Assembly: GCA_000004695.1 (NCBI GenBank)
Contig: CM000150.2
Span: 1,984,001 to 2,048,000, forward strand
Reading direction: 5' to 3'
DNA length: 64,000 nt
DNA from: Dictyostelium discoideum
Taxonomy: Eukaryota
Part shown: positions 6,723-37,804 of the stretch, one piece after another
Numbering within the stretch: the stretch's first letter is position 1
Layout of the letters: each line of letters begins with the position of its first letter
The notes under the pieces: generated by a model
The model's database searches: none
What the model saw: the letters and a program-made list of their open reading frames with translations, nothing else
What the model was told of the DNA's origin: nothing
Program-made: the position numbers and the translations under genes

Positions 6723-6767
<45 letters not shown>

Positions 6768-11235: not shown

Positions 11236-11559
11236 CAGTAACCAATATTCTTTAAAAAAAAAAAAAAAAACAAGATCAAAATAAAAACAAAATTGTATAT
11301 AGTAATATCATAATAATAATAATAAATTTTTAAATTCCTACTTTGCATCATAATTTTCTTTATTTTTATTTTAAATATTAACTTAAATATTGGATTTTTT
11401 TTAGTTATAATCGTTTTAAAAATGGGTAATTATTCAATATCCTTCCAATTTAATAAATTGCCCAATTCAATAGAATCGATAAAGACAATTATTGATTTCT
11501 ATTTTAAATTTTTTTCATAATTTTAGTTTTTTTCAATTTAAAAATTCATTTTCAAAAAT

Positions 11560-11631
11560 GGCTCCTTAGCATAGTGGTATTGCGCTTCCCTAGTAAGGAA
11601 GAGGTCATGAGTTCGATCCTCATAGGAGCCT
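11560..11631 (+). tRNA. tRNA-Thr (anticodon AGU), copy 1.
   Basis: Cloverleaf read by hand. The acceptor GGCTCCT/AGGAGCC is perfect. The anticodon stem CTTCC/GGAAG has loop CTAGTAA (U33, anticodon AGT, A37). The T arm is ATGAG-TTCGATC-CTCAT. A T7 run (pol III terminator) follows. Identical to the copy at 13247. Confidence 0.85.
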
Positions 11632-11639
11632 TTTTTTGA

Positions 11640-12660: not shown

Positions 12661-13246
12661 AAAAAACCTAATCTAAAATAACAAATCAAAATCAGTACTA
12701 CCAAATATTATTTCATTCGATCAATTCATCTAATCAATAATATATTATACCTTTGATTTATATATTGAATATATAAATCTCAAATAAATATCTACTCTTC
12801 ATTTCAAAAAAAAATCAATTAAAAATTCATAAATAAACCTATTATTTCTGTTTATTTCCTATAACCAAAAAACAGTGATTGATCATTATAAAAAAAAAAA
12901 AAATAAAAAAAAAATTTATATGTTCAATAATTAATAAAAAATTAATTATTTCCAAAAATAGTATATTATTTTAAATATTCTCCATTTCATATAGAAAAAA
13001 ATAATTATTAAATTAAATTAAATTATTAAATTATTGAAGATTTATAAATTTAATATAGTTATTCAATAAATATGACATATTTGAAATGTTTTTTTTTATT
13101 TGAGTTTTGTCTACAATTTCTCATGGAGCCAACAAGAAATGAAAAATGAAATAATCAAAAAAAGAGATTGTTGTTTGTTGTTTTTTTTGATTTGAAAAAA
13201 ATATATTTAGTTTTTTTTCTATTATTGATTTTTTTTTTTCAAAAAT

Positions 13247-13318
13247 GGCTCCTTAGCATAGTGGTATTGCGCTTCCCTAGTAAGGAAGAGGTCATGAGTT
13301 CGATCCTCATAGGAGCCT
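13247..13318 (+). tRNA. tRNA-Thr (anticodon AGU), copy 2, identical to copy 1.
   Basis: The 72-nt sequence is the same as at 11560-11631, including 10 bp of 5' flank (ttttcaaaaatg). A T7 terminator follows. Confidence 0.85.
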
Positions 13319-13329
13319 TTTTTTGGTTT

Positions 13330-16300
13330 TGGAGAACCATACAAAACCAAATTCAAAAATGAAACAAAAAAAACCTTAACAAAACAAAGAAATAAACGAG
13401 AATTTATACATATAATAAATAAATCACTGTTATATCTTCACCGCCACATTCATTCCTCTTAATTTTACCCTATTTTTGCTCAATAAAGCAAGGGCTATCG
13501 TCCTATATACTTTTCAACAATGGCTGATGATCACTCAACTGAATTACAGTTAAATCATACAGATAACAACACAACCAATACAAATAATACCTCCACAACC
13601 TCAACAACAAAAAACAAAAGTGCAAAAATCGACACACCTAAAAAACAAACCCCAACAAACCAATTCTCACTTAACAAAGGACTTGATAAAGTGTTACTTT
13701 AATCAACCATACATCCGTGAAGAATTAACCTCTAAAGATGACACAAGAATTCAACAAATTCACAAAAACATTCACAAACTCTTCGAAGATATACTGTCGC
13801 CATCAGCATTAAAAATAATTGGTGCAACTGCCTTCGTAAATTGCAACGTTGATAAATTAACTTCAATAATCAACCTTCAAAACCAACTTGAACTAAATAT
13901 CGACAAACTCAACTATAGATTCGAAATATCATCAAATGATTATGCAATCATTAAAACATTCATTCAAACGTACTCACCCAAACATGAAAACGATGCAATT
14001 ATAAACAACCTCACCAAATTCACCAGTTGTACATCAATTGAATCATTTACTGTCACATACTCATATGCTGTTGCGTTTAAAAGCTACATTATAACATCAT
14101 CTAATTGATCACACACAACATTGTTGATCAAAAGATCCAACAACCATCTGGTATCACAAGATATATCAAAGCTGCAACACGTAGTGTCACTTAACACAAA
14201 ATTCAACATGCAAAAAATGCAGATATGGCAACAACTATAAAAAATGCTCTCACAACCCAAATATTAACAAAAACAATCAACCACCAAAAAACAACATTAA
14301 CACCCCACCAATCAACGAAATTGCAAATTCCAATCGCAATAATAACCCACTTCAAAATAGTGGTTCAAAAGCTACACTAAATGAACCACTTGAAACCAAC
14401 AATCAATCCCAAAACAATAATGAAATTTCACACAAAAGTGATTCTTCAAATAATAATAACGGGAAAAACTCATTATCAATGAGCAATCCAACCGATCCAA
14501 CAATTGTACCACAAAAACCTCTACAATCCCAACCAAACAAACCAAGTGCACCAACTCCAAATACAATAAATACAAGAAGAAGCAGCAATGCCTTGACTAC
14601 ACAACCAGTCAATACTGGTGCAGCCAAACCTAAACACACTCAACAATTGATGGTAGAGCTATTTTAGCAGACATTATATTTCCAAATCAATTACCAATTG
14701 GTATTCTTGGAATTTACGCACCAGCATCAAATAATACCATCAAAAAGAATTCATATGCAACTTCACTACAAACACTTCTCCACAACCACTCAACAAACCC
14801 AATACCAAACCAATCCCAACATGTATCTATTATCGCAGGAGATTTCAACTGTATCCACAACGACAATTCACTATTAGATGATATTATCCAATCCTACACA
14901 TACCAACACCATCTAATTGATCAAGGTGAATTTAAAAACCTCATACACATGGCAACAGATTAGATAGAATATATACTCAATACAATAGAATAGACCCTGT
15001 ATTCAGCGATGCATTGTTCTTCAAGATGTTTGAATTTTGCTGCTTTTTCTAATAGTATTTGTTTTGCAAGTTGAGTTTGTTTGTCTTTGTTATATTGATA
15101 GTTTTTTAGAGTTTTAATAATTTTTGATTTTACTTTTGACCAATTTGTAAATTGATTGATTGATGTGTTATTGTGATTATTTATTAAATGATTGATAATA
15201 TTGATCGCTTCATGGTCATTTGCAGTACCAGGTGATAATATCCATCTTTTCTTATGTTTATTTATTTGAAAAGGTGAAGAAATTGTTGTTGATATTGGAT
15301 TATGATCTGATAATGAAGATGGAATTTGATGGACTTGTGTATATATGTAACAAAAACAAATTACATCAAAACCACACAAACATATTAAAAAAACATATAA
15401 ATGGAGAAATACCTAGCAAGTATCTATCAGCAATACTAAACAAAAGATCAAAAGATGCAAAAATTGAATCAGTCCAATATGATAACATCATTACATCCGA
15501 TCCCGACCAAATTGAAAATGCGTTTGTTGAATTCTACACAAATCTATATAGCTTACAAATATGTTGTCCAATTACTCACCAGCTCATGCTAAACACATGG
15601 CCCATCATAAAAAAGAATATTGGATGGTTTAGACTCACCATTTATACAAGATGAAGTTGAAGCTGCAATTAAAGACCAAGTTAAACCCATTCTCACTACA
15701 TTATTCAACGATATACTAGAAAATCCTCACCACATCACAACAGAATTCACCGAAGGTCTTATACACACAATATACTAGAAAGGCAACCCCTTACTCATAT
15801 CAAATCGTCGTCCCATTACACTTCTAAACACTGATTACAAAATCCTCTCAAAAGTAATCAATGCACGTCTTCTGAGAATACTTCCTTTCATCATCAACAA
15901 CAACCAAACTGGTTTCGTACCCCACTGACTCATCATAGACAACATCATCAACATCAATGAATTAATCAACTACCTCTAATCTAAAAACCTCCCTGGTATC
16001 ATCACACTATTTGACTTCTTTAAAGCATTTGATTCTATCTCTCACGATAGTATTAAAAGAACATTAATTCATATTGGTATACCAATAAAATTAATAAATT
16101 TAATCCACAAGCTATTATCTGACTCATTAGCAAAAATTTCAATTAATGGTAAAACGACCAGAAAATTCGATATTATAAGAGGTGTAAAACAAGGTGACCC
16201 AATCTCAGCCACTTTATTTGTAATTGTAATTGAAATATTAGCAAGAACAATAAATGCAGACAATACAATAATTGGATTACCAATTTCACCCAATCCACAA

Positions 16301-17611
16301 ATTAAAATCAAATTTACCCAATTTGCAGACGACTCTACAACATACAACATCAACTACGAACAACAACAATCAATCAAACATTTCGATAATTTCTTCAACA
16401 TCATCATTAAATTTTGACAAAAGTGCAATAATAGAAATCGACCCCCACAAAATCACTGATAAACACATAATAAACAACATTCCATAATCAAAAAGAATAC
16501 CAATAACCAAAAAAGATCAATCAGAAAGAGTCCTTGGCTATTTCTTTAATCATAATGGTTTACATAGGAAATTACCAGAAACAATGAAAACACTGATCAA
16601 ATCATTAGTACTATGGTAAAACTAGTGGCACAACATTAAAAACAAAAACAACCATCATAAACACCTACTCACTATCACCAATAACATATTTATCATACCT
16701 TGAAGAATTTACAAAAGATGAAGAAATTCAAATTAATAAATTAATCTCATGGTTTATGAATTCTCCCGCAAATTCTGAATCACCAACTCTCAATACCAAT
16801 TCCATTGAAAACAACACATCAACCACGACAAATTAAAATATTTTATATATAAAAATTGCAATGGAAACAAAAACTGGTCACTAACAAAAAACCAAACAAC
16901 AAAATTAAACACACTCATTTATAAACCACAAACAAACAACAAAGCATTTAAACCAGATCCAACAATCAATATTAATTTTAATTTGCAGAAAACGCACAAT
17001 ATAAAATATACAGGTTCAACTGGAATTATATAAAAACAAATCTTGATCTAGTCAGAACACATGCATATTGGAACATAATCTCATTAGTTATTCACCAAAT
17101 ATGGATATGGTTATGCAAATCATTATTTGACATCAATATAACTCAATCAATTGACAATTGGAACAACCAAATAAACAACACAACACTAGATTATGATATA
17201 TTAAAATCAAAATGGCACAAGCTAATAAGATTGGAATATTCAAGAACATTATCAAACTTTAACCAATACTCAATTAAAAACAACCTCACAAAAACTCAAA
17301 AAGAAACCCAATGGTCCGAAACCATCAAAAAATTTAAAAAAGAATAGAGCATAAACACAAATGAACCAATTCCAACAATTACACCACCAATTAATTATTA
17401 ATTACCTAATCTAAAATAACATACCATATTAAATTCACAAAAACTAAAAAACCTAAAATAAATAAATAAAAATAACATACTAATTGTATACTACAATAGT
17501 TTATTTATATCAAAAAAAAAAAAAAAAAAAAAAAATTCAAAAAAGTAAAAAAAAACCGAAACAAAGAAATAGTTTATTTTATATCAAAAAAAAAAAAAAA
17601 AAAAAACAATC
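13330..17611 (+). mobile_element. TRE3-like non-LTR (LINE-type) retrotransposon, near full length but with frameshifts and stops. ORF1 is about 13520..14105. ORF2 with APE endonuclease and reverse transcriptase is about 14480..17345. It ends in oligo(A) tracts (17511-17535, 17590-17611).
   Basis: An endonuclease motif HVSIIAGDFNCIHN is present. RT motifs are present: NRRPITLLNTDYKILSKVINARL, ALFDFFKAFDSISHDSI, GVKQGDPISATLFVIVIE and the FADD variant of YXDD. The element starts within about 100 bp 3' of tRNA-Thr copy 2, in the same orientation. Its 3' end carries the attaattacctaatctaaa module followed by oligo(A). Confidence 0.7.
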
Positions 17612-17719
17612 AAAACCCAAGGGTTCGACTCCCAATAATTAATTTATTTTTTAAAATATTATAATTTTTAAAATATTTTAAAAATAAATTAATTATTGGG
17701 AGTCGAACCCTTGGGTTTT
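17612..17719. repeat. Perfect 40-bp inverted repeat (aaaacccaagggttcgactcccaataattaatttattttt) with a 28-bp AT spacer. Immediately after the retroelement oligo(A) tail.
   Basis: Read directly from the sequence: arms 17612-17651 and 17680-17719 are exact reverse complements. A second 15-bp-stem hairpin (tttttcccttcaaaa/ttttgaagggaaaaa) follows at 17722-17766. Confidence 0.8.
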
Positions 17720-17847
17720 AAGTTTTTCCCTTCAAAATTCACAAAACTTTATTTTTTGAAGGGAAAAACTCAATTTTTAGTTGCCCCTTCTTGAGATGAA
17801 TCTGATTTAATTAAATAGGTTACAGGTGCCTTTTAAGGTGGTATGGT

Positions 17848-17949
17848 TTTTTTTGAATTGGATAACGCAATTATTAGTTGCTTCTCCTTGAGATGCTAGA
17901 TCTCATTTTATTGTAATATTTTTTACCAGTTCTCCAAAAGAGGGGTTAG

Positions 17950-18001
<52 letters not shown>

Positions 18002-18300
18002 TTTGGAATTTTGAATTGTATTATTACTTTTGATTAAAACATCTTTTTTGTCCAAACTTTTTTCTAAATCTTTTTTTAATTTATCGTCGGCTTCGTGATT
18101 GATGTTGATGACACATTTGAATTGTTTTTTTTTATTTGTGTTTTACCAGGGTCATTTTCGAAGATAATTTCATCAGAAATACCGATTGATGGACTACTTT
18201 CGTCCATTTTATAGTCGTCTATTTTCTTTTGGGTATTACAGTTTTGTTCTATTTCAACCAAATGTTTTTTATTTGTTCCAGAAGCTTGAGACAATGAATT
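17848..18300 (-). mobile_element. 3'-terminal fragment of a minus-strand TRE5-like retroelement: repeat R followed by an oligo(A) tail (seen as T8 on the plus strand).
   Basis: About 270 bp (17856-18125) are ~90% identical to 37490-37680. Both copies are preceded on the plus strand by a T run, i.e. a minus-strand A tail. Both contain the end of an ORF (...INHE(A/P)DDK(L/I)KKDLEKSLDKKDVLIK). Confidence 0.45.
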
Positions 18301-18379
18301 GGCTATCTCACAATGAAGACCAAGTGCGGATAGAATAGTTGAAAAGATATTTTAATGATTCTTATATTTTTTATTAAAA

Positions 18380-18830
18380 TTATTTATTTGTTTTATTTAA
18401 AATAGTTGGTGGTTCAATTTGTTTTTTTCTTGTCCAATTTCATCATTTTCTTTTATCACATCACATAATCTAACAATTTTTCCATTTATATACTGAAGAT
18501 TTGTTAATAATTCGGTTCTTCCATTAAAAAATTTTTTTTGATAAAGTTGGTATATTCACTGAGGCTCATACCCTCCATTCCTTGACCAGAAACCATTTTG
18601 CAATCTTTAAAGTAACCTCTTGAGAATTTATAATGATTAAAAAGGATAATGTCAATTATTTTTACCATTTTTTCTTTACAATCGGCTGTGCACACATTAG
18701 GTTAAAACATTGGAAATTCATTTGGATCGGTTAATAACCATAGGTATTTATTCTTATCTTCCTCAGCTTCTTCAACGGAAAGATGTGGGCACTTATTATT
18801 AGCTCTATCTTTCATTATTTAAGTTGTGAC
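18380..18830 (-). pseudogene. Family A pseudogene (A4), frameshifted.
   Basis: Minus-strand segments YLWLLTDPNEFPMF and MCTADCKEKMVKIIDIILFNHYKF... (in another frame) and ...INGKIVRLCDVIKEND are collinear with the intact family A protein at 25231-25689 (LLDQDEFPKI...CTEECKEKMKEIY...DGKPVRLCELPPGV). Confidence 0.45.
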
Positions 18831-19299
18831 TATAAATATGTTTGTGTGATAATGTTTTATTTAATGCTAGTAAAAAATGTTAAAAAAAAATAATAATGAT
18901 AATTTAATTATTATTTAAAATTAAAAAAAAAAAAAAATAGAAAAAAACTTTTTTTTATGATGTTTTTTTTTGAAAATCAAAAATAAAAAAAACCAACACA
19001 AAAAACAACACCAACAGTTTTTTTCTATTTTTTTTTTACAAAAATAGAGACACAGGGAGTTTTTTTTCTTTTCTGCCATTACTTATTTTTTTAGTTTTTT
19101 TTTTAGAAATGCTAGGGTTACCTTCAAACAATAAAAATATTTATTTAATGTATATTTTTATTTATTTTTTTATTTATTTTTATTTTTTTTTTTGAATATA
19201 TAAATACATTTCTTTTTTTTTCATCAAAATAACAAAAAAAAAAAAAATGAAAAAACTATATAGATTATTATTATTCTAATAATTTTTTTATTATAAACA

Positions 19300-20454
19300 A
19301 AGGGGAGGCATAAATGAGAAGATTGACATCTGCTTTCTATGATCCTCCAGCTTACCCCCATCCTCATACTGGATATCCCATGGGTTTGTTTGCCGGCAAG
19401 AGATAAAGATCAAATTTGTCAAGCACCCGGTATTTATATTTATTTCTCAAATACTCCACGACCTTATCCACCACGATTGGTTTCTCACCCAGTTACACAA
19501 CCTGTTTATTCGATTGGAAAATCAATTAATGATATTAGAAGTAGGGTTAAGGTCCATAGTGAAGATGATTTCCCCCATTTGATTAACACCCTAATGGTTT
19601 GCTAATGAGGTTCCCATGTAATAATGAACGTTCTGATAGTAGACCAAGTTTTTCTGAAGTAGCGTTATTAACAATGTTTGCAACCATTAAAAACTACATT
19701 TTAGGTGTCAAAGATAGTGATATTATAGTTTTTGATGACAATGGAGAACCATTTGATATTTTAAGAACGTTTTATGGAGTTAATAATAATAATCCATTTC
19801 GTACTTCTATTCCTCTCATCCAAGCTAATGGAACTGCTAAATTTGGATTCGATCATATGGTTGATTCCACACTTTAACCATTAGCTCCTCCTTCCATAGA
19901 TGTTATCAATGACACTAAATCAATTTTCCCAATAGGTATTCTATATGAATGTGGAAAACTACTTGATGGAGATTATAGTAATTTTGGTCAAGAAGAATCT
20001 GCCAATGGGGTATGTAACCCATGCAATAGAAAAAAAGAAAGTGAAGAGAAAAAATCAAATCCAATCAAATTCAAAAATCCACCATTATCTTACCGTTTAG
20101 AAATTAGCAATAAGTTTAGTAATTTGGAATATCAAAATGCCAAAGAAAATGGTCTTCTAGGAAAAAGTCTAGTTGAAACAGAAAAGCCATCAAAGCCATC
20201 AAAAGTTGGTCTTTTCACTAGGTTTGGCCGTTGGTAAAGGTCTTTTTGTTCCAGAGAAAAAAAGTAATTCGCTTCCTGGCAAATTCAAAGATAGTAATAT
20301 TGAAATGGTAGAGGTAAATCCTGGAGAGGAACAAATAAGTGAAGCGGCGGGCGTTGAGCATAGTCAAATTAGATATAGAGGCACAAATTACTTTTTTGAA
20401 CTTGGAGAAGCTGCTGAAGAGGCTGCTATGATTATCATATCATATCTTTTTTAA
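19300..20454 (+). pseudogene. Family B locus (B1): several adjacent ORFs in different frames (19339-19605, 19599-19877, 20173-20454).
   Basis: The segment GYP(M/W)...GIYIYFSNTP is shared with the fragment at 31222-31446 (GYPWVC...KHPGIYLIFVNSP). The frame changes around 19380. GC content is locally above the window average. Confidence 0.3.
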
Positions 20455-21130
20455 TTTCTTGCACCTCTTTTACGTGCAAAGTTACCAGGTTTGGGTATAT
20501 ATCATTGAGTTTCTTGTGCAGTTGCATAAGTTCTAATTGGCTCTTGTCTTTCTCTGTTTCTTTGCAATCGTCTTCTTTCACTTTCTTCTTGCATCAACCT
20601 TCTTCTTTCTTCTTGTCCGGCCAATCTTTGTTGTGTTTTTTTAATTTTTTTTAATTTTACCTTTTCAAGATCTGCTTCAATTTCTTTTTTTTGACGGGCA
20701 CCCATCGTTTTTTTTTAAAAAATAAACCTAATGATTTATACTTGGTTATATTTAATAGTTGAGAATTTTTATTTTATGACATTGGTTTTGAATTATTTTT
20801 AAAAAAATCATTTTAAATTTTCTTTGATTCATTACATTTTTATTTCTATCTAATGATTTTATATTAATGATCAATAGAAAATCCAATAGCCACATAGGAA
20901 TTCTATAGAAAATCACTGGGAAATTTTGGTTTGATTACCTTTATAATGGTTATTTTCTAAAGATTTTCTATAGAAAACCATTGGGTAAACAGTTGTTTCT
21001 ATAGGAAATCTTTAGAAAACAATCATTGGAAATCGTTGAATTTTTCCTTTTCTCAATTTTTTAATAGTTTTCTAATGGGTCACATCTATACCGTTATCTA
21101 TTGAAAACCATTCCAACAAAAAAATCTAAT
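20447..21130. repeat. Left arm of a large inverted duplication. The right arm is 24430-25053; arms are ~90% identical and each is about 650 bp.
   Basis: The reverse complement of 24430-25053 matches 20447-21130. This includes the small basic-protein gene and 4-5 internal copies of the motif tctatagaaaa(c/t)ca(t/c)tgg. Confidence 0.75.
20502..20705 (-). CDS. Small basic Arg/Glu-rich protein, arm copy 1 (67 aa), truncated by a premature stop relative to copy 2.
   Basis: MGARQKKEIEADLEKVKLKKIKKTQQRLAGQEERRRLMQEESERRRLQRNRERQEPIRTYATAQETQ then TGA. The paralog at 24794 continues ...AQRYIPKPGNFARKRGARN. The homologous codon here is TGA where the other copy has AGA. Confidence 0.5.
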   Translation of the reverse strand: MGARQKKEIEADLEKVKLKKIKKTQQRLAGQEERRRLMQEESERRRLQRNRERQEPIRTYATAQETQ

Positions 21131-22918
21131 GGATTTCGATAAAGCAATATTAAATTATAAAAAATAAAAAAAAAAAAACAATTCAAATAGATGGTTTCAT
21201 TAAAAGAATATTTTAAAAAAGATTAAGGTTTTTATTTTAAAGAATTTTTATATTGATTTCGTAAAGGAAATCATTAAATGTTTTTAAAAAATGGTTTTGA
21301 ATTAAATGATAGCTAAATATTTCTTTACCAAGCTTCTTCAGCTCAATCTTTAATGAGTTCATAACCTTCTTCTGCAGTGATTCTAATTCCATCACCTACT
21401 TCACGTGTAGTATTGCCGATACCATCACCTACATCATGTGCAGTATCACCCCATGCTCATATCTAGATGCATTATCGGAACTTGGAAAAAAAAAGGATTA
21501 TGAACATGGTTTTGATTTCTCTGTTGAATTAAATGAAGATGGTAGCCTTCCAGATTTTCCAAATACTTTAGATCATTAAAACTGATAAAAAAAAAAAAAA
21601 AAATTAAAAAAAAAAAATAAAGATCATTACATAAACAAAACCAATTAAGGTTTTATTTTTTTTATTTTTATTGTTATCATTTTTTTTTTTAATTTATTGG
21701 AATCAATTTGGTATTCGATTTCAGCAGCAGCAATATATTCTTTTTTGGTATTCATTATTTCATTTTAAAAAAAAAAAATTAATAAAACATTATTAATATT
21801 TTTTTTTTAAAAATAGTTTTTTTTTTTTTTTTGAAATAGAATTAAAAAAAAAATTTAAGGAACTGGGATATTATTAACCATTATTCTTTTAGTACATATT
21901 TTTTTAATGGTGATTTTTTTTCCTCTCAAAAAGGTGCTAGTTAAAAAAAAAAAAAAAATAAAAAAAAAAAAAAGAAAAGCATTGATTAAAAATTTCATTG
22001 CCATAAAAATTAAATTGTCTTAGTTGGCACCTGAGATATTTTTTTTTTTTAAAAAAAAAAATTTTTTGATTGATTGGAAGATATTTTTTTTTTTTCCTTT
22101 TTTTTTTTTGGTAATTATTAGACAACCACAAACTCAAAGAGAGATTTACACAATAATTTATGATATTGCTTGTCCACATATACCAGGTACGGAGAATCCA
22201 AAATCATCTTTTAAATTTATGGACAGGTCCCATCTTCTTTAGGTTTTAATGATGCATAAAGCATTGCAGTACTCTTGTATTTGTCAAAAGATTCTACCAA
22301 ATCGGAGATATATTCGGCCGTGCTGCCATCAGGAATCTCTAAATCAAAAAGTGGTTCATATGTTCTCCAATCATTTAAATCATCTGAGAAATTCATATTC
22401 CGTTGCTTTTTTATGTGAGTTTTACTTGTTTTTTTTTTTCAAATTTTCATTTTATTTTTTTTTTTTATTTTTTTTTTTTCCAAATAAAAAAAATGTTTTT
22501 CGAATTTTTATTTTATTTTATTTTTATTTTTTTTATTTTTTTATTCTTTTATTTTTGTAATGTTGATGAATGATTGAATTAAAAATATAATTTACAAAAT
22601 TTTAATAAACTTATTTTTTTCAAGTTTTATTTTTATTCTTATTTTTATTTTTTATTTTTTAATTTTTTTTTATTTTATTTTTTTTATTTTTATTTTTATT
22701 TTTTTTTTTATTTTTTTATTTATTTTTTTTATTTTATTTTTTTATTTTTTGTAATATTAATGAATAATTGAATTAAAAATAATATACAAAATATAAACTT
22801 ATTTTTTCAAGTTTTTATTTTTATTTTTTTCTTTTTTTCTTTTATTTTTTTTATTTTTTTTTTTTTATTTTTATTATCTTTTTTTATTATTTTATTTTTT
22901 ATTTTTTTTTCCATTTTT

Positions 22919-23847
22919 ATGTATTTTCCTATTTTCTATTTTAAATTTGATATTATGAAATTTTTCCACATTTCTAAATTAATATTATTTTTTTTGTTTA
23001 TTTTTATAAATTTTTGTAAATGTCAACGTTTTGTTGGTACTCTTCCTCCTCAAAGAATAAGTGAAATTGTTAATTTTCAATGGAATAATGATATTATGTT
23101 TATAAACAGAGGTAGAAACAGATGGCCGGATATAGAACCCTTTGATGGAAACGGAGTTTATTTCGTATTTAGGCGAATGTTCAAATCATAATGTTTCTTA
23201 GAAATTTTGAACCTCCTAAGGCTGTTCATATGGAAACTTGGTTTCTTTCTGTTTTTGGATGTCCTTATAATAGCATAATTGAAGGAGGTTTAGGTGTAGC
23301 AGCATCAGGATATGGTGCAGGTGGATGGGTTAACTTCTTTAACACTGCTGATAGACAAGATGTTGTTGACTATATTCTCACCGAGACCCTTACAAGACCT
23401 GCTGACTTTTTAGATCACCCAAATTATCCTCGTGCTCCATCAATCATCAGAAAAATAGATGAATGCGAGCAAAACCTCACAAACTTACAAAACCAAATGG
23501 TGAGCCAGCAAACTAATATTGCGGATCTTCAAACACAAAATACAAACCTACAAACTCAAGTGACTAATCTCCAGAATCAAGTAACAGATCTTCAAAATCA
23601 ACTCCAAACTCATCAAAGTGGAAATAACTTTATGGCTGAGACACTCATTTTGGCACTTCTCAAATACAATGGACCGAGTCTAATTGTTTCAAATCCACTT
23701 CTTCGTGGTTGGTATGAAGCAAGAAAAAATGGTGGTGGTGGTGGTGGCAAGTGTGGTATCGGTGGTGTTGGTGATGGTAAGAATGGTGACGGCAAAAACG
23801 GTGACGGTAAAAACGGTGCGGATGGTGCAGATGGTGCAGATGGTTAG
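22919..23847 (+). CDS. Secreted coiled-coil / Gly-rich protein in the centre of the inverted duplication: two ORFs overlapping by 1 nt (22919..23191 and 23191..23847), a frameshift or pseudogene.
   Basis: A signal peptide MKFFHISKLILFFLFIFINFCKC is present. Heptad-like repeats (TNLQNQ/TDLQNQ) are present. The C-terminus reads GGGGGGKCGIGGVGDGKNGDGKNGDGKNGADGADGADG. The reading frame breaks at 23191. Confidence 0.3.
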
Positions 23848-23913
23848 TTAAAATCTGGCTGTACTTGTCCAGAAACCCCTCCCTGTCCAGTAGTAATTCC
23901 ATGCCCAGAGCCA

Positions 23914-24261
23914 GTGGTTTGTAATATAGCAAAAATTCAAATTCAATTGAATTCAACCATAAAAAGTTTGGATGAATGCAAAAAACAAAAGGACCAAACC
24001 AATGATGACCTCAACGTCTGCAAGTCCCATAAAGATGAGATACAAGATTGGCTCACCGACTGTCAAAAAGAATATGTTAAACAAACAAGTCATTCATCCA
24101 AAGATGATACTCTAATTTCTCTCAGAAACTGCCAAGCCGAATACAGAAAAGAAACATTCAAAAAAGATAAGCTCTGCCGTGGTTTGTCCAAACATATCAT
24201 TGGTTATTTAGATTTCTGTGAAGATAAGGTAGAAAAGCTGAGACTCGCTAATTGTGAATAG
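23914..24261 (+). CDS. Small Cys-containing ORF (115 aa), possibly continuous with the upstream gene.
   Basis: ORF from the track. It has regularly spaced Cys residues, and the frame is open upstream from a GTG (LKSGCTCPETPPCPVVIPCPEPV). Confidence 0.25.
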   Translation: MVCNIAKIQIQLNSTIKSLDECKKQKDQTNDDLNVCKSHKDEIQDWLTDCQKEYVKQTSHSSKDDTLISLRNCQAEYRKETFKKDKLCRGLSKHIIGYLDFCEDKVEKLRLANCE

Positions 24262-24793
24262 TTTTCTCATTTTTTTAAAAAAAAAAAAACAAAAAAAAAA
24301 AAAATCATACAATGATTTCCCTTTATGAAATCAATAAAAAATTCTTTAAATAAAATTTTTAATCTTATTTTAAAAAAATTCTTTTAATGAAATCCATTAT
24401 TTTCATTTTTTATAATTTTATTGAACTTTATTGAAAATAATTAGATATTGTTATTTCCAATGGTTTTAGATTGATAACGGTATAGATGTGACCATTACAT
24501 AGAAAACTATTAAAAATTGAGCCAAAGAAAAATCAACGATTTTTAATGGTTGTTCAAAGATTTCCTATAGAAACCATTATTTACCCTATGATTCTCTATA
24601 GAATTCCTAGCTAATGGATTTTCCAATGACCATTAATATAAAATCATTAGAAAGAAACAAAAATGTAACGAATCAAAGAAAATTTAAAATGATTTTTTTA
24701 AAAATAATTCAAAACCAATGTCATAAAATAAAAATTCTCAATTATTAAATATAAACATGTATAAATCATTAGGTTTATTTTTAAAAAAAAACG

Positions 24794-25048
24794 ATGGGTC
24801 CCCGACAAAAAAAAGAAATTGAAGCAGATCCTGAAACGGTCAAATTAATTAAAATTAAAAAAGCACAACAAAGAATGGCTGAACAAGAAGAAAGAAGAAG
24901 GTTGATGCAAGAAGAAAGTGAAAGAAGACGATTGCAAAGAAACAGAGAAAGACAAGAGCCAATTAGAACTTATGCAACTGCACAAGAAGCTCAAAGATAT
25001 ATACCCAAACCTGGTAACTTTGCACGTAAAAGAGGTGCAAGAAATTAA
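24794..25048 (+). CDS. Small basic Arg/Glu-rich protein, arm copy 2 (84 aa, apparently intact).
   Basis: MGPRQKKEIEADPETVKLIKIKKAQQRMAEQEERRRLMQEESERRRLQRNRERQEPIRTYATAQEAQRYIPKPGNFARKRGARN. Inverted paralog of 20502-20705. Confidence 0.5.
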   Translation: MGPRQKKEIEADPETVKLIKIKKAQQRMAEQEERRRLMQEESERRRLQRNRERQEPIRTYATAQEAQRYIPKPGNFARKRGARN

Positions 25049-25230
25049 AAAAAGAAAAAAATAAAAATAATTAAAAGAAATAAAAAAAAAAAAAAAAATT
25101 AAAAATTAAAAATTTAAAAAAAAAAAAATAAACTAGATCTCTTATATAAGAGTTATAAAAAAAAAAATAAAAGTAAAATAAAATAAAAAAATTTAAAACA
25201 GTTCTTTTTATTTAATTAACACTTTTTTTT

Positions 25231-25689
25231 CTATTCATCTTCTTCAGAATCAGGTAGGTTTTTTGCATCAAAATCACATTGTACACCAGGTGGCAATTCA
25301 CATAATCTAACAGGCTTTCCATCTTTAATACCAACTTTCATTGCTTTTATGACCATTCTAGCATATTCATCTTGGGGAGAGATAGGGGGTGGAGTACTGA
25401 AAAATTCTCGATACATCCAAATATCACATCCTCGAGGATTTTTTCCCAAGTTATATTCAAAAATTCTGCTGTCACTGTAATATTTGTTTATAGTCTCAAT
25501 ATAACGTTCGAATGTTATTCTATAAATCTCCTTCATTTTTTCTTTACATTCCTCTGTGCAGTAACCAGGCTGAATCTTTGGAAACTCATCTTGATCTAGT
25601 AATTCATCAAGGTAAAGAGTGAAATCTTCACTTTTTTTAAGCTTTCTTAAAGAAAATTCATCATGTTGGCAACAATATTTACTTGTCAT
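25231..25689 (-). CDS. Family A protein, intact copy (A1, 152 aa).
   Basis: MTSKYCCQHDEFSLRKLKK...DEFPKIQPGYCTEECKEKMKEIYRITFERYIETINKYY...DGKPVRLCELPPGVQCDFDAKNLPDSEEDE. Paralogs or fragments lie at 18380-18830, 25983-26195 + 30800-31056 and 35079-35411. No recognisable upstream exon. Confidence 0.55.
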   Translation of the reverse strand: MTSKYCCQHDEFSLRKLKKSEDFTLYLDELLDQDEFPKIQPGYCTEECKEKMKEIYRITFERYIETINKYYSDSRIFEYNLGKNPRGCDIWMYREFFSTPPPISPQDEYARMVIKAMKVGIKDGKPVRLCELPPGVQCDFDAKNLPDSEEDE

Positions 25690-25982
25690 TTTTATTTAAA
25701 ATTATACGTTATTAAATAAATAAAAAATAAATTAAAAAAAAAAATGGGTTAAAAATTGAAGTAAAAAAAAAAAAAATGAAAAAAAAATGAAAATAAAAAT
25801 TATTGACTTTTTTCCCACAGAAATGAGAAAAATAAATGAAATAAATAAAGACAAAAATAGAAAAAAAAAAACAAATTTTTTTAAAATGGGTGTAATTTTT
25901 ATATAATTTTTTATTTTTATTAATGGCTAATGGTGCGACAAGGGTAAGGGCTACAGTATGCAGTAATGGTGGCTATTCATCA

Positions 25983-26195
25983 TCACTCTTCTTCTTTTGA
26001 TTCACTTTCTCCTTCTGAATCGGTTAGACCAGTTGTTTCAATTTCTACATCTACACCCCTTGGCACGTCACATAATCTAACTAGTTTACCATTAAGTATT
26101 CCCGCTTTCATAGTTTTTAAAATACTATCACGGTACTCCGGATCAATCTTCTCCTCTTCTAAACAATCATTGTATGTCTGACAGCCAACTGTCAT
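25983..26195 (-). pseudogene. C-terminal half of a family A gene (A2), separated from its N-terminal half by the E1 insertion.
   Basis: MTVGCQTYNDCLEEEKIDPEYRDSILKTMKAGILNGKLVRLCDVPRGVDVEIETTGLTDSEGESESKEEE starts exactly at the element boundary (ATGAC on the minus strand, equal to the GTCAT direct repeat). It aligns to the C-terminal half of A1. Confidence 0.6.
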
Positions 26196-26398
26196 TGTTG
26201 TAGGGAATTTTCCATAAAATTTCACTACAGTAGCGTAGTGAATTTTATTATTTAATTTCACTACAGTAGCGTAGTGAAAAAAAAAAATCACTGACCTTAA
26301 ATTTTTTTTTTTTTCAAAAAACAAATAAAGTTTATTAAATTGAAATTTTATTTTTTGTTTTAATTATTATTTTATTTATTTTTATTATAATTATTGTT

Positions 26399-26438
<40 letters not shown>

Positions 26439-26706
26439 CAATTTTTTTTTTTTAAATTTTTTTCAATTTTTATTTGTTTATTAAATTGTAATTTTATTTT
26501 TTGTTTTAATTATTATTTTATTTATTATTATTGTTAATTTTTTTTTTTTTTCAATTTTTTTTTTTTTAATTTATTTTTATTAATTTATTTTTATTAACTC
26601 CCTGAGTTGTTCAATTGCTTGATTTACCATATCACTGTAAACACTGCACACAATTGAATTTTTTCTAGCTTTGTTACCTCTGGTGCATTTGATGTTTTTG
26701 CATTTT

Positions 26707-27465
26707 CACAGCGAAGAAAAAACCACCTTTAAATTCGCTTTAAATTAAATTTAAATTTGCTTTAAAGTCCTGAATTAAAGCAATTTTAAAGGTAATTTTA
26801 AAGGTAATTTATAAGGTTACTTTAAAATCACCTTAAAAATTACCTTTAAAATTACCTTTAAAATTACCTTTTTAATGGCTTTAAAAGCGAGGTCCTGAGT
26901 TCGAAGCCGTTATTTAACGGATAAATTTTTTAAAATTTTTTTTTTAATTTTTCAAAAATTACCAAAAGGGATTCGATCCCCCGACCCTCTATCAAAGGGT
27001 AGTCTCATCAACCATTACACCATTTGATTGCTTTGATGAAAAATTTAAAAATGATAGAATATTTTATCCCCATTTTTTTTTTCTAAAATTAGATCTTTTT
27101 TATTAAAAACCTTAAATTTATGTTTAAAGGAAATTTAAATTCACTTTAAATCTACTTTAAATATACTTTAAATCCTATTTAAAATTAATTTAAAATAAAT
27201 TTTAAAGGTATTTTTAAATATCTTAAAAATTATCTTAAAAATTACCTTAAAAATTACCTTTAAAATCACCTTTAAAATCACCTTTAAAATTGCTTAAAAA
27301 TTTATTTTAAAGCAAATTTTAAAGGCATTTTTAAATATCTTAAAAATTACCTTAAAAATTACCTTAAAAATGAATTTTTTAAACGCGGCTTTAAATTCAA
27401 TTTAAATCCAATTTAAATCAACTTTTCTTTAAATTTGCTTTAAAGGTGCATTTTTCTTTGCTGTG
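26707..27465. mobile_element. Nested 759-bp MITE-like element. It has ~27-bp terminal inverted repeats (cacagcgaagaaaaaaccacctttaaa / tttaaaggtgcatttttctttgctgtg), subterminal 12-bp periodic repeats (ttaaaggtaatt / taaaaattacct) and a tRNA-like core.
   Basis: Termini and repeats were read from the sequence. The internal segments ggtcctgagttcgaagcc (about 26893) and 26968-27031 (minus strand) have tRNA-like D and T arm sequences (TGGTGTAATGGT, GGGGGATCGAATCCC) but do not fold into a complete cloverleaf by hand. Confidence 0.45.
26968..27031 (-). other. tRNA-like fragment (Ile-GAU-like anticodon arm ACCCT-TTGATAG-AGGGT). No valid acceptor stem could be found.
   Basis: Hand folding only: the anticodon stem-loop and a T-arm-like GGGGG-ATCGAAT-CCCTT segment are present. 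No matching acceptor stem was found. Confidence 0.25.
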
Positions 27466-27974
27466 TTCCTTTGTATACAAAAAAGTCCAAATATAATTCG
27501 TTTTCTATTACAGTTTTTACACAATGTTGGTGAAATTGTTTTGATTTTAATTCTAATGCTTCTAACATCATATTTGGATTTTTAACGATTAAAGCATCAC
27601 CACTATTTACATATAGTACTTTGGCTGCTTTTTCGAGGAATTTAGTCAAATTTTCCTCTGAATCTAACTATTCTTCATTGCCATATTCAATGGCTAAATT
27701 TCTTAAGAGTTTTATCGAATCTATTAATTCTTCGATCATTCTTTTTTTTTGAAATTTTTTTTTATTTTGTTTTTTCAATTTTTTTTTTTTATTTTGTTTT
27801 TTCAATTTTTTTTAAGTTTTATTTTTTTTTATTTTTTTTTATTTTTTTTAACAAATGTAATTTTTTTTTATTTTTTTCAATTTTTTTTTTTTTTAATTTT
27901 TAATTTTTTTTTTTTTTTTTAATTTTTTGTGTTGATTTGTGTTTTTTTTGTTTTTTTGATTTGGCCACTTGTTT

Positions 27975-28961
27975 TTATTTTCTAATTTCCCCATACCCCC
28001 TTCTATTAATTGCAACCAAATCAAGTTCTAATTTTTGTGTCCTTGTTAACTTTGTTTTTGCAACTTTTTTTGAAGGTATCACATTAACGATTTTTCCTAT
28101 TGATGGTGATTTGGAAGGTGATTTAAATGGTGATTTAAAAGGTGAATTGGAAGGTGATTTAAATGGTGAATTGGAAGGTGAAATGGATGGTGATTTGGAA
28201 GGTGATTTAAATGGTGATTTGGAAGGTGATTTAAATGGTGATTTAAATGGTGAATTGGAAGGTGAAATGGATGGTGATTTGAGAGGTGATTTGGATGGTT
28301 TAGAATGTGATTTTAAAGGAGGTTTATTAACAATTGGTATCTTATGAGGACGGCCTCTGAGACGTTTAACAGTTGTTACTATACCACTACCAGATTGTGG
28401 TATAGTATACGATGGTATTATTTGCACTTGAGGTATTGGTGGTACTATTTCTTTTAAATTCATATCCTTTCTCAAACAATTCATTAAATTTGGCGCTGTT
28501 GGATTATTATTTAAAAATGGGAGTATTTCTTCTTGTTCCATTTCATTATTGAGTTTGTGTTGAAATGGATTATCGTTAATGATAGGTGGAATATTTGATG
28601 GATTGTTAAGAGCATCTTCCAAAACCCTAAATGGATCATTTTGTGTTACCAATTGATGCAAGTTGAAATTGGATAAATCCTTACCAAGATTTTTAATAAA
28701 CTGAACCAGAAATTCAATAACTTTCCCATCATTATTTAAATAAAGACCAGAAGTAAAAGAATCAATATCTTTTTGTATGTTTGGCGATGTTCTAAAAATA
28801 TCAACTGTTGATTGTTTATAAAGAACCAACTTGTTACCTCCTACAAAACCAGAGTATAAACCTTTTTTTTGAAGGCTATTGATTCCATCTTCCAAAAATT
28901 CAAGTTTATAAAGTTGTTTAGTGTCTTCCTGTATTACCTTATGAATTTTACACAAAATCAA
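27975..28961 (-). CDS. AT-hook / SPKK-repeat DNA-binding-like protein (328 aa), inside E1.
   Basis: An RGRP AT-hook (KRLRGRPHKIP) is followed by about 20 repeats of (K/S)SP(S/F)K. These are encoded by a 12-nt periodic DNA repeat (ggtgatttaaat/ggtgaattggaa on the plus strand, 28090-28320). The N-terminal 200 aa are non-repetitive. Confidence 0.4.
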   Translation of the reverse strand: MILCKIHKVIQEDTKQLYKLEFLEDGINSLQKKGLYSGFVGGNKLVLYKQSTVDIFRTSPNIQKDIDSFTSGLYLNNDGKVIEFLVQFIKNLGKDLSNFNLHQLVTQNDPFRVLEDALNNPSNIPPIINDNPFQHKLNNEMEQEEILPFLNNNPTAPNLMNCLRKDMNLKEIVPPIPQVQIIPSYTIPQSGSGIVTTVKRLRGRPHKIPIVNKPPLKSHSKPSKSPLKSPSISPSNSPFKSPFKSPSKSPFKSPSKSPSISPSNSPFKSPSNSPFKSPFKSPSKSPSIGKIVNVIPSKKVAKTKLTRTQKLELDLVAINRRGYGEIRK

Positions 28962-29031
28962 TATTTTCTATTAGAATTAAATATAAAATTTGTTAATTAT
29001 TACTGTTTCATATATTATTAATCTTTATGTT

Positions 29032-30268
29032 TTAATTACTTACATTATTTTTTTTAATTTCTAGAAAGAGTACAGTATCACCAACTTTCAATCCCTTTGG
29101 TGGTTTTGAATTCCATTGATTTTGGTAACTTGTGAGATTTTCAAGAATAATAGCTGTTCTTTCTTCTTTTGAAACATCTGAAACACCAATTGATTGAGAG
29201 TCTTGTTCTGATTGAACATTAATAAACAAAGGAACAATACCAACAGCTTGAGATGGTGTCATTTTAATTGTTCTTGTTTTTGTATTATTGTAATCATACA
29301 AAGCTTGTTTTAATAGTTCAGAAAGAGACCTAGAAGTACCATCAAGAAAACTAAAATTTATTTATAAATGATTAATTAATAAACATATCGATAATTTATA
29401 TTGTTCACAATATCATACTCTTGTTGTTTTAATTTTGAGATCCTCTCCTTGATAGTTCGATTCAATCTTTCTACCATACCTTGAGTTGTTGGTGTACGAG
29501 GAGCTCCATGTGCTGACTTGGAGCCTGGAAAAAGTTTTAGGAATTCTTTTTGGACTTTGTTTTTAAATTCACGTCCATTATCGCAGTGCCATACTTTCAC
29601 AGGTTTGCCAAAGTACGTGAGAGCCAAAAAATTGTATATGGGAACTGTTCTCTTTGTTGTCAAACATCTAAAAAATAAATGATAATTAAAATAAAAAAAG
29701 AAAACTAATAAATTAATAAATAAAAAATAAATACCTTCCAGTAGCAAATTTTGTAAAAGAATCTATGCATAGAATAATGTAAACAACATCGGTGTCGTAC
29801 GGTTGTACAGAGTCATATTGGATAAGATCATCTAGTTTAGTTAGTATCTTTTCATTATCATCATCGTATGTAACTTTTTCTTTATGTTCACCTTTAATTG
29901 ATGTTAAATCATAAACCAATCTTGAGTATTCCTCGGTATCTACAATTGGAGCAAAATCCTTTGTTATACCTATTAATTTATTTAAATTATTAAAAGAGTT
30001 TTAATATAAAAGTTACAAAACATCATATAAAAATGATTGATACCAAACCTTTTATTCTATTTCGTTGGCAAATGTCACACGTATCTACTGCATCAGATAC
30101 AAAAGAATACAATCCCATATTATAATATTTAGTCTTGTAGTTCCCATAGGTTGCATCTCTTCCTATATGACCTTTATGCATTTCTTCCCAGAGTGATACC
30201 ATTCTATAATCATTAATTACTTCTAAACACACTTCTTTTGATATATTTCTATCTCCGCCACAATTCAT
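29032..30268 (-). mobile_element. Degenerate Ty3/gypsy-type LTR-retrotransposon integrase remnant (Skipper/DGLT-like), fragmented across three or four ORFs.
   Basis: An HHCC zinc-binding motif is present (HKGHIGRDATYGNYK...CDICQRNRIKG). An integrase core is present (KVWHCDNGREFKN...SAHGAPRTPTTQGMVERLNRTIKERI). A C-terminal SH3-like KVGDTVLFLEIKK is present. Stops and frameshifts lie between the pieces. Confidence 0.6.
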
Positions 30269-30487
30269 GACTTTTTTTTCAATTCTAAATAATTTTTCTT
30301 TTCTGTTTCTGTTTTTTATTGGTCAGAATTTAAAAAATGATTGTGTTATTGTAAGGAAAAATATTTACTCATCATGTAAAAATTTATAATTTTTATGTTT
30401 AGTATTTTCAAAATTATTATCTTCAATAAATTTTAAATAATTTATAATTTCATTTATTTTATCTTGTTTCATTTTGGGAAAATGAAA

Positions 30488-30522
<35 letters not shown>

Positions 30523-30799
30523 TGTTGGGGAAAAAAAAAAAAAGTTTTGGCGCAAAAAAAAAAAAAAAAATAAAATAAAAAAAAAAAAAAATAAAATAAA
30601 AAAAAAAAAAAATAAAAAAACTTATATAGAACTAATAATCAAATAAAAGATAATAATTTAATAAACTTTATTTGTTTTTTGAAAAAAAAAAAATTTAGGG
30701 TCAGTGATTTTTTTTTTTCACTACGCTACTGTAGTGAAATTAAATAATAAAATTCACTACGCTACTGTAGTGAAATTTTATTGAAAATTCCCTACAACA

Positions 30800-31056
30800 G
30801 TCATTATTGGTGGGTCTGGGAAACTTTTGAATATTTTACAATCATCATAGTAATTATTAACTGCCTTGAGATATCCTTCGAAAGTTATCCTATAAATTTC
30901 TTTCATTTTTTTTTTACATTCTTTTGTACAGAGTCTATTTATCTCAGGGAATCTATCCTGGTCAAATAATTTATCATCGTATAAAAAGGGGCCAAGTTTT
31001 TTAAGGTTTTCTATTGAAAAGCGGTCATGTCCGCATCCACCTACTTTTCTCAACAT
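30800..31056 (-). pseudogene. N-terminal half of family A gene A2. The reading frame runs into the E1 terminal repeat (...PDPPIM then TVVGNFQ, stop).
   Basis: MLRKVGGCGHDRFSIENLKKLGPFLYDDKLFDQDRFPEINRLCTKECKKKMKEIYRITFEGYLKAVNNYYDDCKIFKSFPDPPIM aligns to the A1 N-terminus. It ends at the GTCAT/ATGAC direct repeat. Confidence 0.6.
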
Positions 31057-31480: not shown

Positions 31481-31696
31481 TGTTGTAGGGAATTTTTTTT
31501 GAAATTTCGCTTTCTAAACGGCAGTGAATTTTTACACTAAAATACACTGTTTATGCATGGTGTAAAAATTCACTAAATTTTTTTTTTTTTATAATTAAAT
31601 TAAAAAACAATTTATTTAATCAGAAAAATAAAAAACCAATTTTATTCAGTTATTTGCTTGTTATTTATTTTTTTATAACAAAAAAATTTAGTTTGC

Positions 31697-32134: not shown

Positions 32135-33156
32135 AAAAAAAAAATAAAAAAAAAAAGAAAAATAAAAAAAAAAAGAAAAATAAAAAATAAAAAAAAAAAT
32201 AAAAAAAATAAAAAAAAAATAAAAAAAAAAGAGGGTACCCCCCCCTAAAAAAAATAATAATTTTAATAATAATAATAATAATAATAAAAATGAAAATTAA
32301 TATTTAAATAAAAAAAAGAGGGTACCCCCCTAAAAAATGTTGGAATTTAATTAAATTTATTTTTTATTTTTTTTATTTTTTAATTTTATTTTTTTTATTT
32401 TTTAATTTAAAAAATGTTGATATAAAACAAAAAAATTTTTTCAAAAAAAACATTTCAAATTATTTTTAACAAATTATATTATTATACTTTAATGTATGTG
32501 TACAATTTTAAAAATTTAAAATTTGTTCTATTTTTATCAATCATATCATGTATATTTATTAATTAAATCTCATATATTCTTATTCCCAGCAAATGACATC
32601 AGGTGGAATCGTACAACCAGGCCAAAATCTCTCACAACGTCCAATAAACGGCCAATATGGCTGGGGACCAGCAGCAGGAAGTGCCGCAAATCCACGTGGC
32701 GATCTCCGTGGTTACACTTACAATATTAGATAGTTTCGCTGTCTATTTCTGAATATTCAGAAATCTTTGTTTAATGCCAAAAATAGTAGATATCTATTAT
32801 ATTTTCTCATTTTATAAATCTGATAAGATCTGTCTTAAATAAAAAAAATCAAATTTTTTTATAAATTAAAAAAAATCATTTCCGCAAATCCGCAAAAAAT
32901 AGCGGGAATTAAATTATTTATTGTTTTTTAAATTGTTTTTTTTGCGTGATATGAAATGAACAGCAAATGAACAACGTGTGAGTTGTATTAGCTGATGGTA
33001 ATATTTATTTATTTTTGTTTAATTAAAAAATTTTTTATAAAATAAAAAAAAAAAAAAATTTTAGTGAATTTTTACACTACGCATAAACAGTGTATTTTAG
33101 TGTAAAAATTCACTGCCGTTTAGAAAGCGAAATTTCAAAAAAAATTCCCTACAACA
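31481..33156. mobile_element. E2: 1.7-kb element with ~97-bp terminal inverted repeats sharing the terminal 16 bp (tgttgtagggaatttt) with E1. Flanked by a 6-bp direct repeat CACCTA. The interior is non-coding.
   Basis: 31481-31577 is the reverse complement of 33061-33156 with one 3-nt difference. Each arm contains a 15-bp-stem hairpin (agtgaatttttacac...gtgtaaaaattcact). CACCTA lies at 31475-31480 and 33157-33162. The interior has poly(A/T) tracts and two GAGGGTACCCCCC boxes (32231, 32318). Confidence 0.55.
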
Positions 33157-34811: not shown

Positions 34812-35078
34812 TTTTTATAGAAGATTTTTTCAATTAAAATTCTATAAAAATAAAAAACAAAATAAAAAAAATAAATTTTATAAAAAAAAAAAAATGTTTG
34901 AAAATATAAAATCATTAATCTTCTCAGCAGTTTCTTTATTATTCTCTTTTTTGTATTATCATAGTGATTCAATTATATCTTTATTCACTCAAAATCTTGG
35001 TGAGGCAGTTTTGGAAACAATAGACGAAGTAATTCATAAACCCCAAACCTCATTACAACAAGAATCATTAAAATTACA

Positions 35079-37469: not shown

Positions 37470-37804
37470 TTGGAAATTTTTTTTTTTTTGAATTGGATAA
37501 CGCAATTATTATTTGCTTCTCCTTGAGATGCTAGATCTCATTTTATTTTTTTTTTTTTTTTACAGGGTCTTTTTGATTAAAACATCTTTTTTGTCCAAAC
37601 TTTTTTCTAAATCTTTTTTTATTTTATCGTCTGGTTCGTGATTGATGTTTATGACGTATTTGAATTGTTTTTTTTTTTTTAATTGAGTTTTATCCACAAT
37701 TTCGCTTATTTTTTGTAGGCATTTGTGTTGCTTAATATTTGTGGTGTTGTTTGTGATTTTCATTTTATTTTCTTTCTATCTTTTTTATTTTACTGATTAA
37801 CTTG

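Follow-up and report, generated by a model that had tools for sequence, protein, structure and literature searches.

The 64-kb window analysed here (contig CM000150.2 of assembly GCA_000004695.1, positions 1,984,001 to 2,048,000) belongs to chromosome 1 of Dictyostelium discoideum AX4, has a GC content of 15-30%, and contains at 20447-25053 a 4.6-kb segment that ends in two inverted copies (arms) of one unit: a gene for a small Arg/Glu-rich protein, here called S, and the intergenic region upstream of it, here called U. This structure is very probably a local inverted segmental duplication inside a decaying, lineage-specific cassette of five genes (Q-N-B-S-C), that is, a scar and not a mobile element. 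The inverted structure has no function as a unit. An earlier note, made from the DNA sequence without database searches, had named an inverted segmental duplication among its readings, and this reading is supported by the single copy in a syntenic locus of D. cf. discoideum (L002), by the disrupted gene L next to the left arm, and by an independent assembly of the same locus (L004). The arms are composed as follows (coordinates of the window):

20447-21312, minus strand: left arm, with the pseudogene S' and the complete upstream region U' (20706-21312), which holds 5 motif copies.
20451-20705, minus strand: coding sequence (CDS) equivalent of left S'; the annotated open reading frame (ORF) is 20502-20705 (DDB_G0268726), with TGA at 20502-20504.
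24290-25053, plus strand: right arm, with the upstream region U (24262-24793) and the intact S gene DDB_G0268732 (24794-25048).

Each arm is thus one unit, formed by U (about 530-640 nt from the stop codon of gene B to the start codon of S) and the S gene, and it ends 8 nt past the S stop codon. The right S ORF encodes 84 aa and is 100% identical to DDB_G0268732 of D. discoideum AX4; the left one encodes 67 aa. That the arms are reverse complements at about 90% identity, as noted earlier, has been borne out by three kinds of comparison. A repeat scan paired 20428-20721 with 24778-25071 at 93% and 20709-20890 with 24610-24791 at 94%. Self-BLAST matched 20447-20932 to 25052-24571 (93.0% over 487 nt, bit score 718) and 20966-21285 to 24603-24301 (77.5%), and revealed no third arm copy within the window. 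In a MAFFT alignment of 20451-21285 (835 nt) with 25048-24301 (748 nt), 660 of 741 positions are identical (89.1%), with 101 gap columns; identity reaches 94.5% in the outer 441 nt, which comprise the CDS and 185 nt upstream, and is 81% in the inner part. Homology fades by ~21312 on the left and ~24290 on the right, so the arms, first described as ~650 bp long, do exist but are somewhat longer, at ~0.75-0.87 kb. Tandem Repeats Finder (TRF) reported no tandem arrays in them, and an Rfam search of the whole window returned three tRNAs only, none of them in the arms.

The same inverted pair is present in the independent assembly GCA_054883475.1 (L004), which is colinear with 13170-26707 of the window at 99.7% and contains both CDS exactly. 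Over 20300-25200 there are 0 substitutions and 7 gap positions, and both the order and the two junctions are the same. Since this assembly has the identical structure, the artefact that the earlier note had named as its possible refutation is excluded.

The origin of the unit can be read from its copies at other loci. The order Q(+) N(-) B(+) S(+) C(-), spanning 6.7 kb at ~82% identity, is common to L002 and L006, both from D. cf. discoideum. Locus L002 is syntenic with 21684-25698 and 34247-35836 of the window and is its best match (91% across 24571-25698 and 90-97% across 34247-35237), but it has one arm, within the cassette, and no inverted repeat. For this reason, the right arm would represent the ancestral context and the left arm an extra copy. 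Single arms are found at L002, L003, L005, and L006, and among the loci compared the inverted pair occurs only at L004, which is the same locus; the arm sequence therefore does occur elsewhere, a point that the earlier note had marked for checking, as a single unit. Gene B precedes U-S in the window, in L002 and L006, on AX4 chromosome 2, and, as a remnant, in L001 and L005. Overall, the U+S block has been kept in copies from three genomes, with gene B upstream in all but L003. On AX4 chromosome 2 the genes concerned are DDB_G0275481 (B) and DDB_G0275483 (S), whose accessions (XP_643583 and XP_643584) and gene numbers are adjacent, which implies that they are neighbours. The right arm of the window conforms to this order: it follows B and precedes C, and its AT-rich 3' flank is normal, unlike that of the left copy.

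The remaining evidence lies in the left flank and in the centre, where the following features have been delimited:

19284-20436, plus strand: L-family gene (Dictyostelium-only; DDB_G0269066 and DDB_G0268954), decayed, with frame changes and one in-frame stop.
20437-20446: outer left junction, where the truncated L gene and the arm are separated by ~8-10 nt of filler, ATATCATA.
21340-21579, plus strand: possible mirrored remnant of N (N'), tentative, in which 13-21 residues resemble N proteins.
21586-21692 (107 nt), plus strand: N 3' fragment, the final codons of an N gene with the 3' flank, inverted and displaced with respect to the cassette order.
21684-22213, plus strand: truncated Q, the upstream region and first 35 codons, matched in the same orientation by L002 7235-7663 and 8400-8580.
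22214-22240: tail-to-tail junction of Q and N, where, relative to the intact L001 N, 21 nt of N (codons 58-65) have been inverted in situ.
22217-22396, minus strand: N fragment DDB_G0268730, the first 59 codons (intact N-family genes have 108-131 aa).
22545-22935: tandem duplication of ~192 nt (22545-22745 and 22737-22935) inside the divergent N/B promoter region 22397-22956.
22957-24261, plus strand: gene B pseudogene, with a signal peptide, an NQ-rich coiled coil, a Gly-rich tract, and a Cys-rich C-terminal part.
25231-25689, minus strand: C-family gene, the last cassette member, outside the duplication, with 83% aa identity to the L006 C gene and in the same position in L002 and L006.

According to their protein accessions, the AX4 models follow the order DDB_G0269066, DDB_G0268954 (left flank), DDB_G0268726, DDB_G0268730, DDB_G0269068, and DDB_G0268732. 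At the left-arm junction, the L gene lacks its last 4 codons: its homologues (P0026-P0036) align to 19284-20436 as far as residue 278 of 282, and they end in AAMIISKVV where the window has AAMIIISYLF. Read against the flanks of the right arm, L002, and L001, the junction runs ...ATGATTATC, then ATATCATA, then TCTTTTTTAATTTC. The outer ends show no target-site duplication, as the left flank ...CATATCATATC and the right flank AGAAAAAAATA... share no repeat.

The centre contains broken genes. Gene B, for which the AX4 model DDB_G0269068 covers 23191-24261, has suffered a ~145-nt deletion near 23177 that shifts the frame relative to the intact 492-aa gene in L001, in agreement with the frameshifted secreted coiled-coil/Gly-rich gene described before, and it also has an in-frame TAG at 23845-23847, derived from TGG, that had not been reported. 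The tandem duplication of ~190 bp noted in the same place could likewise be confirmed, even though TRF did not report it. No ORF of the centre reached a Pfam gathering threshold and no transposase was found by this search, in which gene B gave sub-threshold coiled-coil similarities only. For the truncated Q, tblastn with the Q protein covers residues 3-34. The N 3' fragment is 83-86% identical to the DNA that directly follows the N genes at L006, L002, and L001 (E values from 1e-26 to 1e-35).

Two features of this centre bear on the mechanism. Firstly, the Q/N junction forms a quasi-palindrome (TATCCAT-11 nt-ATGGACA) in which the change of Tyr58 to Cys makes the stem perfect, and the in-place 21-nt inversion is a typical template-switch signature. 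Because of this signature, a replication-based rearrangement would be the most likely mechanism, and a rearrangement during replication or repair is most likely the origin of the scar, as far as junction sequences can indicate. Secondly, the N 3'-flank fragment at 21586-21692 lies in mirrored orientation beside the left arm, which suggests that the duplication may once have spanned ~3 kb. The initial event would have copied the 3' flank of N, N, the promoter, B, U, and S, and placed them upstream of Q, probably through fold-back repair or template switching during replication. Later deletions would have removed the mirrored B' and the greater part of N', leaving the present 0.8-kb arms, and the outer arm halves may have been partly homogenised by gene conversion. 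With regard to this last step, S codons 31-65 are identical between the arms, yet they are equally conserved at other loci. Judged from its context, the right arm appears to occupy the ancestral position, and the left arm appears to be the secondary copy, in reverse orientation, that later acquired a premature stop.

Several observations weigh against this reconstruction. The divergence of the arms is uneven (94.5% identity in the outer part and 81% in the inner one), and the inner left arm, the right arm, and L002 are about equidistant, at 80-82%. Identity to L001, a different locus in another D. discoideum strain, is 94-96% for the right inner arm and B, and 90-96% when N is taken together with them. 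The first 30 codons of left S share residues with the chromosome 2 paralogues and not with right S; beyond them, left S shares chromosome 1-specific residues with right S. The assignment of 21340-21579 to N' is tentative and weak, being based on a blastp alignment of SVELNEDGSLP with SLKVNEDGSLP (E ~1e-3 in a tiny database). Furthermore, L004 is base-identical to the window, so it validates the assembly and says nothing on natural variation. Taken together, these data could mean that the left arm came from another paralogous cassette, that the right copy was partly overwritten, or that gene conversion took place.

The first of these options has been considered as an origin in its own right: U+S, or a larger piece of the cassette, would be dispersed by copying, and the left arm would have been inserted from another paralogous cassette and come to lie, by chance, inverted 3 kb from the resident copy. 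In its favour, AX4 has five S paralogues on contigs that fit chromosomes 1, 2, and 5, and the S copy of L003, which sits near a tRNA-His gene, has only ~75 nt of homologous sequence upstream and is not accompanied by the other cassette genes. The left arm also has indels in common with L002 and L006 that the right arm lacks, and residues A3, T24, and L28 of left S recur in the chromosome 2 paralogues. However, the arms resemble each other (94.5% in the middle and 98.8% in the 3' CDS) more than they resemble L002 (88% and 97.5-98.1%), and both chromosome 1 copies have NRERQ...TY where the other three AX4 paralogues have LREKQ...TF. In addition, no target-site duplication or poly(A)-type boundary is seen, and the mirrored N 3' flank by the left arm fits a block duplication. 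Such an ectopic origin is therefore considered unlikely.

The second possibility raised in the earlier note, a foldback-type or terminal inverted repeat (TIR) DNA transposon with the arms as its inverted ends and the 3-kb centre as its cargo, is very improbable. The segment of 4.6 kb does end in inverted arms within which a short motif is repeated, but its outer ends lack a target-site duplication, its centre has no transposase and reaches no Pfam gathering threshold, its arms consist of a gene and its promoter, occur singly elsewhere with no second pair among the loci compared, and hold no tandem arrays according to TRF. Moreover, the marks of a transposon are detectable in this region, as they are present in a TIR element only 1.1 kb away. 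This element of ~4.6 kb (26201-30799) has inverted ends of ~320 bp (26196-26500 and 30799-30479, 82% identical), termini TGTTGTAGGG...CCCTACAACA of the TGT...ACA type, a 5-bp target-site duplication (GTCAT), and an rve-integrase fragment at 29376-29747 on the minus strand. It splits a C-family gene into two pieces (26019-26138 and 30829-31035), and the paralogous L005 has the empty site. Since these features match the published description (PMC2836005), it can be assigned, from its sequence, to the Tdd-4/Tdd-5 (Ginger2) type as a bona fide member.

That two paralogous copies were chimerically joined or collapsed in the assembly, an error that a region rich in repeats and paralogues might invite, is hardly credible given that GCA_054883475.1 differs in gaps only. 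It is equally hard to believe that the inverted repeat would be kept as a source of double-stranded or hairpin RNA silencing the S family: S codons 31-65 are nucleotide-identical in the two arms, and also, save for a 1-nt deletion, in the D. cf. discoideum copy that lost its start codon and frame, but the S copies are divergently transcribed ~4.1 kb apart, no transcript through both arms is indicated, the left copy lacks its normal 3' flank, and the locus is full of pseudogenes. The suggestion that the DNA itself is prone to hairpin formation is also unlikely to hold, given a spacer of ~3 kb and an identity of only 89% between the arms.

The comparison of the two S genes codon by codon has confirmed TGA in the left copy (20502-20504) against AGA in the right one (24995-24997). 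The next 16 codons are still identical between the copies, and 12 codons differ over the whole gene, 10 of them among the first 30. The S family appears, from the searches made, to have five members in AX4 and to be found only in D. discoideum and close relatives. Two of the five are complete (84 aa), and in the other three the C-terminus is truncated or altered; both S ORFs of the window are 88-100% identical to family members. No relatives outside the D. discoideum group were detected among 5.8 billion clustered proteins or, with HMMER, among 1.8 billion representatives, and Pfam assigned S to no family above the gathering threshold. AlphaFold2 predicts a single long charged helix (residues 13-69) followed by a disordered basic tail. 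Literature searches with the gene identifiers of the locus found no paper naming them.

S is 96% identical between cassettes that are ~82% identical overall. Its conservation extends to copies with a disrupted ORF: in L002, for example, the start codon ATG reads ATA and 1 nt has been deleted. The pN/pS values among S copies (0.25-0.8) are based on 10-25 differences per pair, which are too few to judge selection at the protein level. The right S looks to be the only copy still usable.

In another D. discoideum strain (GCA_054859385.1), the S copy of L003 (10491-11017) lies 49 nt downstream of the tRNA-His gene. Its upstream homology is confined to ~75 nt before the ATG, it carries a 54-nt in-frame internal duplication, and the rest of the cassette is not with it. 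A retro-copy origin was considered for this copy, and no target-site duplication was seen by eye.

Six paralogous copies of region U, from three genomes, have long conserved blocks in common, which is unusual for the AT-rich intergenic DNA of Dictyostelium. Besides the copies of the window (24262-24793 and 20706-21312), these are:

L002 11190-11797
L006 9362-10000
L005 10940-11580
L001 7665-7985

U contains an array of ~8-10 related motifs in both orientations, roughly GAAA(A/T)CCAT(T)GG and TCTATAGAAA, in forms such as TCTATAGAAAACCATTGG and its relatives, and in the arms the copies are irregularly spaced. For the motif TCTATAGRAAAYCW, with at most 1 mismatch, there are 8 matches in the window against 0.34 expected. 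The four to five copies per arm proposed in the earlier note therefore stand for the left arm, which has 5, but not for the right one, which has 2 (the remaining match lies elsewhere); the surplus sits in a ~69-nt segment lost from the right arm. A regulatory role for the U motif is plausible.

Two further loci add to the picture of the cassette. In a different D. discoideum strain, L001 (GCA_054859355.1, JBTAPG010000020.1 1502877-1523212) has N and B genes in intact form (111 and 492 aa, respectively), which match the decayed copies of the window at 90-96% identity, and S is deleted save for its last 60 nt. These genes sit between unrelated metabolic genes (UDPGP, aminotransferase, and an FMO cluster), and the locus may be either paralogous or translocated. 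In D. cf. discoideum, L006 has a second inverted duplication (6680-7157 and 16482-16959; 478 nt, 98%, 9.3 kb apart) that involves the Q gene of the cassette, and inverted copying therefore recurs in these regions.

Virus-like ORFs have also been observed near the cassette copies, at L006 132-2835, L003 3555-6434 and 17077-17649, L002 13140-16347, and 33892-35237 of the window. One of them resembles the poxvirus factor VLTF3 (25.5 bits, with a Pfam cut-off of 25), and another, L006 1591-2835, is capsid-N-like (23.6 bits, with a cut-off of 24). Homologues of the capsid-like and VLTF3-like ORFs, 33-42% identical, are present in L003 along with its S copy, and a primase-like gene, a YqaJ recombinase, a GRF zinc-ribbon gene, and DDE_Tnp_4 transposases have also been found near cassette copies. 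By tblastn, no capsid-like or VLTF3-like sequence was detected in the window, and such ORFs occur only near the cassette copies at L006 and L003. A PDB search with the capsid-like ORF returned one weak match (PBCV-1 MCPv3, E 0.47) and none with a two-sequence profile, and literature searches on Dictyostelium repeats and endogenous viruses found nothing specific. It is conceivable, if doubtful, that S, U, and the Q-N-B-S-C cassette are passenger or structural genes of undescribed large virus-like or mobile elements in the D. discoideum complex, in which case the chromosome 1 duplication would be a decaying integrated copy. Should this be true, S, a small basic helical protein, and B, a secreted coiled-coil protein, could be associated with virions or interact with the host. 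If the linkage were confirmed, it would suggest that social amoebae harbour endogenous viral or large mobile elements; the present evidence for it is weak.

The duplication is located in an island of the window, ~13-40 kb, which is rich in pseudogenes and repeats and is flanked by normal cellular genes. Other features of the window include a further inverted pair (31481-31635 with 33005-33156, 90%) and two identical tRNA-Thr(AGT) genes (11560-11631 and 13247-13318) with duplicated flanks (11522-11638 and 13206-13325, 92%). A non-long terminal repeat (TRE-type) retrotransposon with a reverse-transcriptase domain occupies ~13.4-19 kb, downstream of the second tRNA-Thr gene. TRE-like fragments are also found upstream of the tRNA-Arg gene at 39312-39385, and 17847-18137 matches 37482-37680 at 94%. 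Finally, a lipase-like gene shows a direct tandem duplication (42245-43851 and 44065-45676, 76%), with a third, diverged copy, inverted, at ~58.3-59.8 kb.

Taken alone, the duplication carries little weight: it shows a small D. discoideum orphan gene family being copied, rearranged, and pseudogenised. It also offers a worked example of how an inverted segmental duplication can be told from a foldback transposon, with a genuine TIR transposon adjacent as the positive control. As by-products that may prove more useful, the analysis has brought to light a recurring cassette of Dictyostelium-only genes with an unusually conserved, motif-filled intergenic region, and the presence of virus-like genes near some of its copies.

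Foldback elements, such as FB of Drosophila, have long inverted arms made of tandem subrepeats around unrelated DNA. The structure described here resembles them in its long inverted arms enclosing unrelated DNA and in the short motifs repeated in the arms. In contrast, it lacks a target-site duplication, a transposase, and an arm architecture of tandem subrepeats, the pair did not recur at the other loci compared, and its arms are a gene with its upstream region that is single elsewhere. Within the same genome, chromosome 2 of AX3 and AX4 reportedly carries a 750-kb inverted duplication. Both are inverted duplications, but the one on chromosome 2 is said to be thousandfold larger, recent, strain-specific, and near-identical, whereas the arms studied here are 6-19% diverged.

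The Tdd-4/Tdd-5 (Ginger2) elements of D. discoideum are characterized by TGT...ACA termini, 5-bp target-site duplications, and an integrase-like transposase (PMC2836005). Their overall size is similar to that of the segment, their inverted ends measure a few hundred bp, and one member lies 1.1 kb to the right; nevertheless, the inverted pair has none of these termini, duplications, or transposase.

The closest parallel is found in the inverted segmental duplications (foldback inversions) of yeast, which arise by fold-back priming or by replication template switching (PMC10622511). The two share inverted cis copies with a spacer, non-homologous junctions, the lack of a target-site duplication, and later deletions (PMC10622511), as well as a short quasi-palindrome with an inverted loop, here located at one breakpoint in the centre. 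They differ in that the yeast events are large chromosome-arm duplications with hairpin-capped or dicentric intermediates, whereas the present case is a sub-kilobase intrachromosomal remnant whose mechanism is read from its junction sequences only. On this comparison, the chromosome 1 structure would best be filed as an inverted segmental duplication of the fold-back priming or template-switching kind.

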